Shown here: positions 5,115-40,781 of the stretch, piece after piece
How the letters are laid out: each line of letters begins with the position of its first letter
How positions within the stretch are numbered: position 1 is the stretch's first letter
Source of the DNA: Thermoproteota archaeon
GTDB lineage: Archaea > Korarchaeota > Korarchaeia > B14-G2
DNA: 64,000 nt
NCBI GenBank assembly: GCA_037917675.1
Contig: JAVCBW010000025.1
Location: 32,001 to 96,000, forward strand
Reading direction: 5' to 3'
Translations under genes and position numbers: made by a program
The notes under the pieces: generated by a model
Database searches by the model: none
Told to the model about the DNA's origin: nothing
Seen by the model: only the letters and a program-made list of their open reading frames with translations

Positions 5115-6105
5115 TCACCACACTCTAGGGTATATATCCCTATCCATTAAGACTCTGATGGTCTTAGCTGCTCTACCATACTCTCTCTCTAGGAGCTCTT
5201 CTGCAGAGAGTAAGGTGATGGCTAGAGCTATAGCTTCCCCTTTCAATGTCATTACTACAACAAGGTCTCCCTTCTTGATACCTTTAGTCAGCTTACAGAT
5301 TCCAGGTATCCCAAGGTCTGCTCCATAGCATATTGCATTGACAGCTGTGTCCTTAACGTATAGCTTAGGTAGATGGGATAGAGCTTCTTCCATGGGCACT
5401 ATAGCTCTCCTTAGGTGAGAGGCATCACCTTCCTCCCTCCACTTCCTTATAGCATACTCTAGATAGTGGAGTGTTGTAAGCCCCTTCTCCTCAGCTAGTG
5501 GCCCCACTTGGATTCTCCTAAGCTCCACCATGTGTGCGCCAGCTCCCATAGCCTCTCCGATGTCATGTACTAGCTTCCTGATGTAGGTTCCTGCTTCACA
5601 TGTCACTCTAAGAAGGACGTATCTTCCCTCTTTCTCTAGGAGCTCTATTGCATATATCTTCCTGACTCTGAGCCTTCGCTTGACAGCAGACTTTAGAGGG
5701 GGCCTCTGGAAGATCTCTCCTGTGAACTGTTTCAGTGTACTAGCTAGAAGGCTGTCAGGCACGTCTCTGTGAAGCTTCATAAGGCACACGTAGGTCTTTG
5801 GTGTCGTCAGTAGAACCTTGCTTATCTTTGTAGCATGCCCTAGGACTACTGGGAGCAGGCCGCTGGCAGGAGGATCTCCCCTGCCCTCCCTAGAGGGCAG
5901 CTAGGGTCCCGCAGTGGCCTACCTTAGCCTTGAATCCGAGAATAGCCTTAATCCAGCTTACTACATCACCTGATGTTGGGCCCCTCGGCTTGTCTAGAGG
6001 GATGACACCAGTCTTGAGGAGGAGCTCAGGTGGCCGCTTATATGGAGGGACACCATAGCTTGGATCAGTCTCACATTCACATATTGTAACCAGTTCCTGA
6101 GCCAC
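5115..6105 (-). CDS. cbf5: H/ACA pseudouridine synthase Cbf5, two exons (6105-5901 and 5875-5115; 321 aa spliced)
   Basis: LDKPRGPTS..GHCGTL|D-PPASGLLPV restored by removing 25 nt; QRPPLKSAVKR, CEAGTYIR, C-terminal PUA domain. Confidence 0.95.
5876..5900 (-). other. 25-nt BHB intron inside the cbf5 catalytic Asp codon (G^AT)
   Basis: GGA-CCCU-AG^C-UGCCCUC(UAGG)GAGGGCA-GGGG-AG^A-UCC: complete hBHBh'. Confidence 0.95.
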
Positions 6106-37076: not shown

Positions 37077-38234
37077 CTATCCCTGTTGCAAGGCGGACTT
37101 CGTGACTATCCTCATCCATGCTGGTACCTTTACGACATCAACTGCCTTGACGCCAGCTATGACTTTAACACCTCTAGATGCTGCAGCATCAACTATCCTC
37201 TGTGTGATAAAGCCGTCATATACTATGTACTCTATTTCTCCTTTCATCGATGTTAGTTCCTTGTATAGAGCATCTACCTTACATCTGCGAATGACATTGA
37301 AGTCTTTGTCTAGGAGTAAGGCTTCAAGCTTCCCTTCTACCTGGGGGAACAGGTCTGAAAGCTTTTTGCTGACATCAGGAGAGACAGCCTGTATCTGGGT
37401 GGACTTCAGGTGCATTGCCTGACGGTACTCGTCAGCTGGGACAGCGTTCCTAAGCGCCTGCCGGATCTCCTTGGCAGATAGCTCTTCTACGCTCCTGCCA
37501 GGAGGTGCTATTGCAATGTAATCTACATCCATGTGTGAAAGGACATTCTTTAAGACGAGTTCTCCACCGCGATCACCATCCACAAACACCGTGACATTCT
37601 TGCGCTTACTTAGCTCGATTAGAGACTTGGGTATTGTTGTTGCGCCACCAATTGCTATGACGTTTCTCCAGCCATACTTGAGCATCTGAATGACATCAGC
37701 ACGCCCCTCAACTACTATTATGTCGTCAGAAGATTCTATCGCTGGCCCACAAGGTAGCTTCTCAGGGCCATAGTAGGATAGCTCAGCTAAATGTCCTTCC
37801 TCCTGGATCCTTTCAAGTATATCAGCTGTGTCAGCTGTCAAGCTTGCAGTCCAGCTTCTGAGTATCTCGATTGCCCTTCTCATGATCTGCTTTCTCCTCT
37901 CTTCTCTGGCATCGACTATCCTCTGGAGTTTTATCCTAGCTGGGTAAGGTCCCACTTGGTCTACTGACTCGAAAGCAGCTGCAAGCAGAGCAGTCTCTGG
38001 CCTGCTCATGTTAGATGTTACTATGATGTGGCCCTCTGTAGCTCCATTTCTCTGCCTCAACTCAGCCTTAATGCGGCCGATCTTCCCTATTCTCTGGAGC
38101 TCTCTTAGCTCAAATGGCTCGCCTAGAAGACCTTCGAGCTGGCCGAATATTGCACCTATGACGTCACTGTCCTCAACTAACCCCTTAACGCTCAACTCAA
38201 AGTGCAAAATGTATTTGTATGACTCTTTCGCCAA
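37077..38234 (-). CDS. dnaG: Archaeal DnaG (primase-like, exosome-associated)
   Basis: DVIGAIFGQ.EGLLG, VVEGRADV, FVDGDRGG; TTG start at 38234 after SD GAGGTG. Confidence 0.94.
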   Translation of the reverse strand: MAKESYKYILHFELSVKGLVEDSDVIGAIFGQLEGLLGEPFELRELQRIGKIGRIKAELRQRNGATEGHIIVTSNMSRPETALLAAAFESVDQVGPYPARIKLQRIVDAREERRKQIMRRAIEILRSWTASLTADTADILERIQEEGHLAELSYYGPEKLPCGPAIESSDDIIVVEGRADVIQMLKYGWRNVIAIGGATTIPKSLIELSKRKNVTVFVDGDRGGELVLKNVLSHMDVDYIAIAPPGRSVEELSAKEIRQALRNAVPADEYRQAMHLKSTQIQAVSPDVSKKLSDLFPQVEGKLEALLLDKDFNVIRRCKVDALYKELTSMKGEIEYIVYDGFITQRIVDAAASRGVKVIAGVKAVDVVKVPAWMRIVTKSALQQG

Positions 38235-38240
38235 GTCTAC

Positions 38241-38364
38241 GCACCTCTGGGGGTGGTAGGTGTGTGTCTGCCTACTGATTAACGGGATCATCGATAAGCC
38301 AACGCTTACCTCTCATCACCCGGCTCTAACAAAGGCAGACAGCCCCCACCACATTCCCCAGCAT
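38241..38364 (-). ncRNA. Structured RNA in dnaG leader: long hairpin with K-turn, closed by a putative BHB (107-nt excisable segment 38247-38353)
   Basis: Stems GGGG/CCCC, GUGGUGGG/CCUACCAC, UGUCUGCCU/AGGCAGACA, CGGG/CCCG, GGUAAGC/GCUUAUC; UGA and GAUGAU K-turn strands; TTTTAAG box at 38380-38386. Confidence 0.7.
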
Positions 38365-38486
38365 CTTAGGAAGAAGCTACTTAAAATCTTTCATAGAAGG
38401 TTTAATGATGCTCTCAACAAATTAATAGGAAACGTAGCAGCTTAAGGGTAGGTGAGAATCAGATAGCATAGCTTAGGCTGATCAGA

Positions 38487-39659
38487 ATGCCTACAAATCT
38501 ACCAGCTGAGGCCTTATCAAAGTGGGAAGAAGTTCAGAAAGCTAGAACCCCTGAGGAGAAGCTTAGAAAGCTGCAGGAATTCTACTCGATGATCCCAAAG
38601 CATAAAGGGACAGAAAAGCTGCTTAGGCAGGTTAGAAAGAAGATAGCTAGACTTAGAGAGGAGGTGGCGTCTAGAAGAGAAAGAAGGAAGGGGATAGGCT
38701 TCTTCGTGGAGAAGAGGGGAGATGTACAGGTGGTGCTATTTGGGTTTACGAACAGTGGAAGAAGCACTATCTTGAACAAGCTTACAGGTAGAAGGTTGAA
38801 GATTTCATCTAGCCCATTCACTACAGTAGATAAGCCGGAGACAGGTGTGTTTACATGGGAGGGTGTGAGCATCCAGCTAGTTGAGGCACCACCGGTTGTT
38901 GAGGATCATGATAGCGTATTTACATCCAGGGCATTAGCGCTTGTGAGAAATGCAGATTCTGTTGCAATAACTTTGGACTCCTCTAATAACCCTATAGATC
39001 AGCTGATTAAGCTAGCAGACACGCTTAAGATGGGAGGGATCTCTCTGAAAAAGCCGAGAGCGTACATCGATGTAGAGCCTAATCCCAGTAGAAATGGGAA
39101 CCTTGTGAGAGTAAGGGGGAAGCTATGTGGGTGTACAATCAGAGATGTAGAGGAGGCGTTGATCGAGCTCGGAGTGAAGAATAAGATAGTAACCATATAT
39201 GGAGAGGCAGACCTTAGCTTAATAGAGGAACATATAACCATGATGCTTAGGTATAAGCCACCTATGATTATGGTGACAAAGCTAGATATGTTAACATACA
39301 GCGAAGCAGACAGCATCTTGAAGGAGATTAAGAAGATAGCTGGTGAGACGTTGGTCATAGATGCGAGAAGAAGCCCAGATGCTATAAAGAGAGAGATGGC
39401 CGAGTATCTGTTACATAAGCTTGGGCTGATTAGGGTATATACGTGGGGGAGGTATGAGAAACAGCCAGCAAGCAAGCCTATAGTAGTGAAGAGGGGAGCT
39501 ACTGTATTAGAGGTAGCTGGTAAAGTTCATAGCAGCCTTTATGAGAGATTTAAATACGCGCTTGTCTGGAGAAGAGGAGACTTGGACAAGAAGCCTGTAA
39601 AGGTCGGTAGGGGATATACTGTAGAAGACCTAGATGTGATAAGGATAGTGGGAGGCTGA
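38487..39659 (+). CDS. DRG/OBG-family GTPase with TGS domain
   Basis: MPTNLP, PKHKGTEKL, GFTNSGRST, TKLD, C-terminal TGS. Confidence 0.88.
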   Translation: MPTNLPAEALSKWEEVQKARTPEEKLRKLQEFYSMIPKHKGTEKLLRQVRKKIARLREEVASRRERRKGIGFFVEKRGDVQVVLFGFTNSGRSTILNKLTGRRLKISSSPFTTVDKPETGVFTWEGVSIQLVEAPPVVEDHDSVFTSRALALVRNADSVAITLDSSNNPIDQLIKLADTLKMGGISLKKPRAYIDVEPNPSRNGNLVRVRGKLCGCTIRDVEEALIELGVKNKIVTIYGEADLSLIEEHITMMLRYKPPMIMVTKLDMLTYSEADSILKEIKKIAGETLVIDARRSPDAIKREMAEYLLHKLGLIRVYTWGRYEKQPASKPIVVKRGATVLEVAGKVHSSLYERFKYALVWRRGDLDKKPVKVGRGYTVEDLDVIRIVGG

Positions 39660-39699: not shown

Positions 39700-39813
<114 letters not shown>

Positions 39814-40693: not shown

Positions 40694-40781
40694 AGCCGCG
40701 GGCGGGATCCTCTATAGGAATTCGAACCCGCGACCTCCGGCTTACCAAGCCGGCGCTCTAACCAGGCTGAGCTACCGCGGC
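40694..40781 (-). tRNA. tRNA-Thr(GGT) with 13-nt T-loop intron (59/60)
   Basis: CCGGC-TTGGTAA-GCCGG; GGGTTCGAA^TTCCTATAGAGGA^TCCC. Confidence 0.88.

Follow-up and report, generated by a model that had tools for sequence, protein, structure and literature searches.

A probable box H/ACA-type RNA immediately upstream of dnaG throughout the class Korarchaeia

The stretch of DNA analyzed here (the window: 64,000 nucleotides (nt) of contig JAVCBW010000025.1 from a sediment Korarchaeote) encodes the archaeal DnaG primase/exosome protein on its minus strand, and a structured element lies between the promoter and the start codon of dnaG. An original prediction, made from the letters alone, described this element (38241-38386, minus strand) as a kink-turn (K-turn) RNA that resembles box H/ACA guide RNAs and is excised from the dnaG leader at a motif of the bulge-helix-bulge (BHB) type. 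Once its coordinates were read and placed on the sequence, every listed element was found where it had been reported. The existence of an H/ACA-like K-turn RNA between the TATA box and the dnaG Shine-Dalgarno sequence is borne out by homologues with covarying stems, which occupy the same place across the class Korarchaeia. As judged by comparison of sequences, the element is the copy carried by genus g1 of a single-copy, structured, Korarchaeia-wide RNA that is syntenic with dnaG. Coordinates below are those of the window and refer to the minus strand unless stated; G000 is the present genome (family f1, genus g1) and G001 is its sister genome and only congener. The features of the locus are:

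38386-38380, minus strand: TTTTAAG promoter box, within the B recognition element (BRE)/TATA sequence GAAAGATTTTAAGT at 38392-38379
38362-38360, minus strand: GCU, the 5' strand of the outer helix as drawn for a BHB
38359-38356, minus strand: GGGG, at which the transcript is predicted to begin and which pairs with CCCC at 38252-38249 (pair probabilities 0.996-0.998)
38355-38353, minus strand: AAU, a 3-nt bulge (GAU in G001), unpaired in the minimum free energy (MFE) and centroid folds
38352-38344, minus strand: GUGGUGGGG, 5' strand of the clamp (closing) helix, which pairs with CCUACCAC in the folds
38341-38333, minus strand: UGUCUGCCU, 5' strand of the lower stem (P1), which pairs with AGGCAGACA at 38273-38265
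38332-38323, minus strand: UUGUUAGAGC, 5' strand of the pocket (internal loop), unpaired or weakly paired in the folds
38322-38319 and 38286-38283, minus strand: CGGG and CCCG, the upper stem
38318-38311 and 38292-38287, minus strand: UGAUGAGA and GAUGAU, the K-turn strands
38310-38293, minus strand: apical stem GGUAAGC/GCUUAUC of 7 base pairs (bp), with loop GUUG
38282-38274, minus strand: UUAAUCAGU, 3' strand of the pocket
38273-38265, minus strand: AGGCAGACA, 3' strand of the lower stem, which overlaps ACACACA
38267-38261, minus strand: ACACACA, three overlapping ACA triplets
38260-38253, minus strand: CCUACCAC, 3' strand of the clamp helix, followed by CCCC at 38252-38249
38248-38246, minus strand: AGA, a putative 3' bulge, which overlaps the Shine-Dalgarno sequence GAGGUG at 38247-38242
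37077-38234, minus strand: dnaG (NCBIfam NF003108), with a TTG start codon at 38234-38232

The dnaG open reading frame (ORF) matches NF003108 with 433 bits (cut-off 300), and the N-terminus of the protein, read from the TTG codon, aligns with those of relatives. This codon is 7 nt past GAGGUG, and 14 nt separate it from the CCCC that ends the folded rod. A gene for Pelota follows dnaG, and an Obg/DRG-like GTPase is encoded upstream and divergently transcribed. Within the promoter, TTTAAGTAGC is identical in G000 and G001 and is surrounded by variable spacer in the alignment.

The RNA is predicted to be strongly structured. A 171-nt stretch has an MFE of -64.7 kcal/mol compared with -51.2 +/- 3.8 kcal/mol for shuffled sequences (z -3.59), and 0/200 shuffles were as stable. 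When folded from the predicted start at GGGG, the RNA reaches -62.7 kcal/mol (z -4.78, again with 0/200 shuffles as good) and its ends are brought close together. In this fold ACACA sits in an internal loop between the hairpin and the clamp, and the Shine-Dalgarno sequence, for the most part unpaired, comes immediately beyond the rod. The lower stem, UGUCUGCCU/AGGCAGACA, comprises 8-9 bp in the folds, and in G000 an additional closing helix of 12 bp surrounds the hairpin together with its ACA. The ACA that had been noted 15 nt past the upper stem is indeed present, but it is paired inside the lower stem when that stem has 9 bp, and the next ACA triplets follow at 17 and 19 nt.

Between GGGG and CCCC the G001 copy has only four differences from that of G000, and the spacer and upstream DNA have diverged. 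Because a short BLAST match at the K-turn region pointed to dnaG in other genomes, dnaG was fetched across the whole class. DnaG was detected in 39 of the 40 class genomes, and 30 dnaG loci were fetched and examined. All 30 have a homologous hairpin upstream of dnaG, alignable over its full length (MAFFT); the consensus for genus g2 is CCGCCCGCCA-CUGCAUGA-CCCCGUGGG-UAGGGA-GGAAAGC-GUGG-GCUGACC-UGUGA-CCCGCGGGG-AUUAGU-UGGCGGGCGG-ACA. The original prediction had proposed an examination of dnaG upstream regions in relatives for covariation, and covariation was found. In the 88-column alignment 92.9% of cells are paired under the proposed structure, compared with 34-51% when the partner strand is slid, and compensatory changes (on both sides) occur in 17 of 25 base pairs; 0/500 shuffles attain any of the five measures used. 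Eight of the ten pairs of P1 show compensatory changes, and pairs of P2 and of the apical helix also covary. The K-turn columns G-R-G-A-G-G and U-G-A are invariant among the 30 sequences, and 28 of them have ACA after the lower stem (the other two have UCA).

A covariance model (R1) was built from the class alignment, with G000 and G001 included in the training set. It has exactly one match in 38 of the 40 class genomes, each on the contig and strand of dnaG and just upstream of this gene. The two genomes without a match are G030, which is 72% complete and in which no dnaG was found, and G038, in which dnaG is broken at a contig end. The RNA is thus found just upstream of dnaG, on the same strand, in 38/38 class genomes with an assembled dnaG 5' end. 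R1 has no matches in the three remaining genomes of the phylum. On 80 named dnaG contigs from all archaea it gives four further strong matches, all upstream of dnaG, one of which is in Ca. Methanodesulfokora washburnensis.

Within this family the g1 RNAs are the most divergent members. Their upper stem has 4 bp, compared with 9 bp in relatives, and they have added the closing helix with its 3-nt bulge. Most of the class is without a closing helix. Clamp helices of 8-10 bp that lack bulges and follow the ACA were identified in G023 and G033 and in three loci outside the class that are described below (L079, L084 and L095). In G023 and G033, which form genus g7, the hairpin and ACA are surrounded by an uninterrupted 10-bp helix, GGCGUCAGCC/GGCUGACGCC. 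Inspection by eye of the fetched loci revealed no uninterrupted clamp in any upstream region of family f2, and placed the helix-like flanks of G008 and G011 upstream of the predicted start. Pocket sequences differ by genus, with AUGA/AYUAGU in g2, AUUGA/AUUGY in g5 and UUAGAGC/UUAAUCAGU in g1. The 5' strand of the g1 pocket departs from the ..NAUGA of the class, and the AUCAGU part of its 3' strand aligns with AYUAGU. Genera g3, g4 and g6 have a spacer of 60-200 nt between the RNA and dnaG with a common GGUCGUUUGRRUCGA (loci L026-L029, L046, L049, L052 and L053), and the g4 spacer additionally bears a strong hairpin just before the Shine-Dalgarno sequence.

A TATA-like box is located at an equivalent distance from the RNA in every relative. 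The distance from the start of its TTA core to the first paired base, counted by eye, is 29 nt in both g2 and g4, 27 nt in g6, 26 nt in g3 and, measured to the clamp, 29 nt in g7. In G000 the core starts 25 nt before GGGG, in G001 it starts 28 nt before it, and the spacer between GAAAGATTTTAAGT and GGGG is 20 nt. The gene for the signal recognition particle RNA in the window, used as a calibration, has a similar TATA spacing. Because the spacing matches that of other lineages, we infer that transcription starts at or within GGGG (38359-38356) and that the box functions as the promoter. With this start, the 5' strand of the drawn outer helix (38362-38360) is probably not part of the RNA. The 14 nt from the rod to the TTG codon showed no terminator, no oligo-T and no further promoter, so the same transcript would continue through the Shine-Dalgarno sequence into dnaG. 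The start codon follows the RNA after about 14-30 nt in g1 and g2, with no sign of a second TATA box.

According to the excerpted text of a study of archaeal H/ACA RNAs (PMC4652768), the lower stem has 7-9 bp, a single-stranded ACA is positioned 14-16 nt 3' of the pocket-closing pair, and the second G·A pair is reached 8-11 stacked layers from the pocket, 10 being the functional number. Most of the class fits these measures, with ACA 16 nt from the pocket-closing pair and 9 + 2 = 11 layers. A K-turn can be recognized at the level of sequence, as the 3' strand reads apical stem-GAU-GA (apical stem-NNU-GA in the class) and the 5' strand has a GA that abuts the apical stem; both features are invariant among the homologues. 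A second K-turn or a loop-E motif inside the pocket was considered and rejected on sequence. The genome encodes Cbf5 (324.9 bits), Nop10 (49.4 bits) and L7Ae (97.8 bits), all above their cut-offs; the match for Gar1 has 23.2 bits and is under its cut-off of 29.3.

The G000 RNA shares with archaeal box H/ACA small RNAs (sRNAs) such as Pab91 and Pab40/Pf7 of Pyrococcus (HgcE/F/G in Rfam) an organization in which one hairpin, built of a lower stem, an internal loop, an upper stem, a K-turn and an apical loop, precedes an ACA. Also shared are a lower stem of 8-9 bp and the presence of genes for Cbf5, Nop10 and L7Ae. Unlike those sRNAs, it has a 12-bp closing helix and too few layers and is joined to an mRNA leader, and neither an Rfam match nor a target was found for it. 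H/ACA guide RNAs of Korarchaeota are absent from Rfam, and no Rfam match at E<=10 was found at the hairpin in the loci of seven relatives. We found no description of a Korarchaeal H/ACA RNA in the searchable literature, in which 'H/ACA' is not searchable as a word, so that absence from print is not established. HgcG (Pab40) motif 3 was tried as the closest family but not confirmed, as it has no match on Korarchaeal loci and reaches only 7-16 bits (E 0.6-5; gathering threshold 77) on L079 and L080.

Small RNAs that share a transcript with a neighbouring gene are known in archaea, where C/D box sRNAs occur in mRNA ends. In those cases, as at dnaG, one promoter seems to serve both a guide-type sRNA and a protein-coding gene. 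The dnaG RNA differs from them in being of H/ACA type and in that its linkage to one particular gene is conserved class-wide.

We consider it probable (roughly 0.7) that the element is a small-RNA gene and not an intron, namely the g1 copy of a box H/ACA-type single-hairpin RNA that occurs once per genome in the class Korarchaeia, immediately upstream of dnaG. An RNA starting at GGGG would fold into a closed rod, in which the first bases pair with CCCC and the clamp GUGGUGGGG/CCUACCAC encloses the H/ACA hairpin. The helices that had been drawn as the inner and central helices of a BHB would then be the g1 form of the closing clamp, interrupted by a 3-nt bulge. A single transcript would carry the RNA first and then dnaG, with the RNA as the 5' leader of the dnaG mRNA. 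The RNA may stay attached, as a protective and protein-bound leader, or may be released by ordinary cutting or trimming at the foot of the clamp. Binding is predicted most likely for L7Ae at the K-turn and for Cbf5-Nop10-Gar1 at the lower stem and ACA.

The reduction of the upper stem from 9 to 4 bp, together with the altered pocket, suggests that guiding may be impaired or changed in g1. The near identity of G000 and G001 suggests that the RNA is still under selection there. As a guide, the g1 copy may therefore be poor or retargeted, and it may be kept for another role, for example protein binding or protection of the dnaG message. The parts that survive in this copy are the K-turn, apical stem, lower stem and ACA, and the upper stem and pocket appear to be free to change. 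The combination of a single copy, clear structural selection and a class-wide tie to one essential gene is unusual for a guide RNA. If the RNA is a working guide, its target would be an unknown pseudouridine; if it is not, it would be an example of a ribonucleoprotein (RNP) scaffold reused as an mRNA leader.

Several findings weigh against a small-RNA gene of H/ACA type. The transcript start, its 3' end and co-transcription with dnaG are all predictions from the sequence. The G000 hairpin has about 7 layers (the 4 bp of CGGG/CCCG, one A-U or U·U and two G·A pairs) compared with the published 8-11, and the one ACA that it has at 14-16 nt is base-paired within the lower stem. A search of 38100-38550 against Rfam at E<=10 gave 0 matches, and a scan of the whole window gave none at the locus; no described family, H/ACA or other, was matched. 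The R1 scores of G000 (62 bits, partly by construction, as this genome is inside the training alignment) and G001 (60 bits) are the lowest of all despite their membership of the training set. The same genome also provides a convincing case of a BHB intron, in the cbf5 mRNA, which likewise has AGA as its 3' bulge. Enforcing the BHB fold costs 4.2-4.8 kcal/mol at dnaG compared with 4.9 kcal/mol at cbf5, where the probability of the outer helix is equally low (<=0.008). Finally, no convincing rRNA, tRNA or other target was found for the G000 pocket, in scans that admitted G·U pairing, displaced borders of the stems and 1-3 unpaired bases, or for the pockets of its relatives; the original prediction had not identified a target either.

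A scan of the whole G000 genome returned 59 sites at the set threshold; the top sites are in AT-rich DNA, either intergenic or coding, and none falls within a stable RNA. The G000 23S rRNA and the 3' half of its 16S rRNA, supplemented by complete 16S and 23S sequences of relatives as stand-ins, contain nothing convincing for the pocket of G000. The strongest rRNA candidate, close to the 5' end of the 23S, includes an internal mismatch and pairs through only 4 bp on one side. Among 31 scanned tRNA genes called by ARAGORN the best score is 15, and the match is lopsided. The pockets of G004, G006, G020 and G023 were compared with the rRNA loci of the same genomes and nothing was found. The pattern ACTARTTNTCAT, a degenerate form of the consensus target, with <=1 mismatch, is no commoner in five genomes than a reversed control, and its four exact matches are in unrelated contexts. 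One match of the pattern in 23S rRNA lay antisense and was rejected: the sense sequence, GCAUGAAUGGAUCAACGAG, resembles the g2 pocket rather than complements it, and, since g2 species vary in the CUGC portion that matches, the resemblance was judged to be chance. A motif common to the pockets of look-alikes from Thermoprotei (TTAAC..CTCT) has 0 matches in six rRNA loci, and a longer form has 0 genome-wide; comparison of these pockets with Korarchaeal rRNA, a poor stand-in, also found nothing. The rRNA contig of G000 (C60:1-3896) begins inside the 16S gene (model position ~770), so that its 5' half is missing, and no 16S at all was found in G001. A target may therefore lie in the 5' half of 16S rRNA, which is missing from both g1 assemblies.

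A possible but less likely explanation, compatible with the one that we prefer, is that the RNA is a cis-acting structured leader. It would derive from an H/ACA RNA that is no longer a guide (or, in g1, never was one), bind L7Ae and/or the Cbf5 complex, and set the stability or translation of the dnaG message. The strict linkage to dnaG in all 38 genomes with an assembled 5' end of this gene would be expected of such a leader, as would the short gap to the start codon in g1 and g2, where no second TATA box was seen. The failure to find a target in any lineage, the variation of the pocket among genera, and an upper stem in g1 that is too short by the published rule in a sequence that is near-invariant between G000 and G001 also point this way. 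The work of Daume et al. (2017) reportedly concerns L7Ae on K-turns of mRNAs. In the excerpted text of a paper on Haloferax it is cited among the few reports of proteins that bind archaeal 5' untranslated regions (UTRs) (PMC7714728). Arguing for a guide, on the other hand, 28 of the 30 homologues retain the ACA and lower stem at the canonical distance (16 nt), as a guide bound to Cbf5 requires. Orphan guides are common, and the 16S 5' half that both g1 assemblies lack could hold a target. Furthermore, by eye, the interval between the look-alikes in Thermoprotei and dnaG contains T-rich stretches and a separate TATA-like box, so the linkage there need not be transcriptional.

We regard as unlikely a more elaborate version, in which the H/ACA RNP assembled on the dnaG leader is itself the functional product and couples the level of DnaG, a primase and partner of the RNA exosome, to the supply of L7Ae and Cbf5-Nop10-Gar1. 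In g1, with its shortened upper stem and changed pocket, the guide function would have been given up and the leader role kept, and the bulged closing helix specific to g1 would serve as a site of release or processing, possibly cut by the splicing endonuclease at the single true bulge.

The third explanation is that of the original prediction: a BHB-flanked intron in the dnaG leader, which the splicing endonuclease EndA would cut at AA^U and AG^A, with exons joined as GGGGAA|AGGUGC and the excised RNA circularized, possibly as a control on dnaG translation. The hBHBh' form of the motif (helices h and h' flanking the BHB) can be drawn in both G000 and G001, with GGGG/CCCC as the 4-bp helix, AAU or GAU on one strand and AGA on the other as the 3-nt bulges, and 8-9 bp in the inner helix. 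EndA is encoded in the genome, and the spliced leader would retain AGGUG 8 nt before the TTG codon. BHB introns in mRNAs have been described in cbf5 of Crenarchaeota (PMC2738675) and, according to the excerpted text of PMC7714728, in the 5' UTR of HVO_1309 of Haloferax; the latter is a precedent for a leader position. The outer helix of the drawing is weak. In G000 (GCU/GGU) it consists of G·U, C-G and U·G, with one more U·G possible, giving 3-4 pairs with a single G-C among them. In G001 it is reduced to two pairs, U·G and C-G, followed by a mismatch, with no compensating change. Three extra pairs, with G·U allowed, are expected by chance after a 3-nt skip in ~5% of cases (0.375 cubed). The caveat already attached to the motif, that CUGGGG/CCCCAG pairing competes with it, is upheld by the favoured fold: the U-A pair (0.987) and the C-G pair (0.583) abolish the 3' bulge, and the outer helix has a probability of 0.001.

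Comparison with relatives and the position of the promoter also argue against excision. TATA spacing sets the start at GGGG, so that the outer helix has its 5' strand level with or upstream of the first transcribed base and probably outside the RNA. The homologous clamps of G023, G033, L079, L084 and L095 are free of bulges, other homologues have no clamp, and because f2 upstream regions lack an uninterrupted clamp, the family evidently works without a BHB. Unlike known BHB mRNA introns, therefore, the dnaG motif has a weak outer helix that is not conserved, and its homologues lack the motif. Since the cbf5 BHB pays the same energy penalty, folding energy cannot decide the question; it is on the grounds of promoter position and comparison, not thermodynamics, that we consider excision, a circular RNA and splicing control of dnaG improbable. 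A bulged terminal helix beside a promoter can imitate a BHB, and folding energy alone cannot separate the two.

The cbf5 gene (5115-6105, minus strand) is interrupted by a 25-nt insert (5876-5900) that draws a perfect hBHBh', with GGGA/UCCU, CCCU/GGGG, bulges AGC and AGA, and UGCCCUC/GAGGGCA. Removal of the insert restores GHCGTLDPPASG, which contains the catalytic GTLDP motif, and it is likely an mRNA intron. This insert must go to restore the motif, whereas nothing at the dnaG leader requires removal. The cbf5 gene is split at the same residue in G001, G023 and G020, with inserts of 22 nt in G001 and, by eye, 20 nt in G023, and the BHB geometry is kept in G001 despite its different insert. 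The gene is continuous in G004 and G028, and in the excerpted text of Yokobori 2009 (PMC2738675) Ca. Korarchaeum cryptofilum is listed without a cbf5 intron. The splicing endonuclease of G000 is a single ORF of 377 amino acids (C1:137858-138688, plus strand) with two nuclease domains (48 and 78 bits).

That the hairpin is a functionless chance structure in a promoter region is extremely improbable, given that 0/200 shuffles fold as well and that it is conserved class-wide with compensatory changes.

Candidate H/ACA-type single hairpins were also identified 107-194 nt upstream of dnaG on four contigs from metagenome-assembled genomes of Thermoprotei or Thermofilales (L079:986-1064, L080:932-1007, L084:1020-1094 and L095:998-1073). 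They were recognized using a simple hairpin descriptor and a weak R1 match (19.3 bits, E 0.016). Three of the four are closed by a clamp of 8-10 bp straight after the ACA, and their pockets read ..AGAGAG and UGUUA(A). The descriptor matched 6/80 upstream regions in sense orientation, 0/80 in antisense and 3/80 coding controls; one match (L109) looks false, and the descriptor is of limited specificity and also insensitive, because it missed three of the four strong covariance-model matches. The look-alikes suggest, as a lead and not a result, that the clamp and the dnaG neighbourhood are older than Korarchaeia.

Elsewhere in the window, two Rfam tRNA matches at 39707-39790 (plus strand) and 40714-40774 (minus strand) cover model positions 8-63 only, with 31.8 and 34.2 bits. 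Introns or some other unusual feature of these tRNA genes may account for the low scores; only the second is called by ARAGORN, as tRNA-Thr at 40708-40780.

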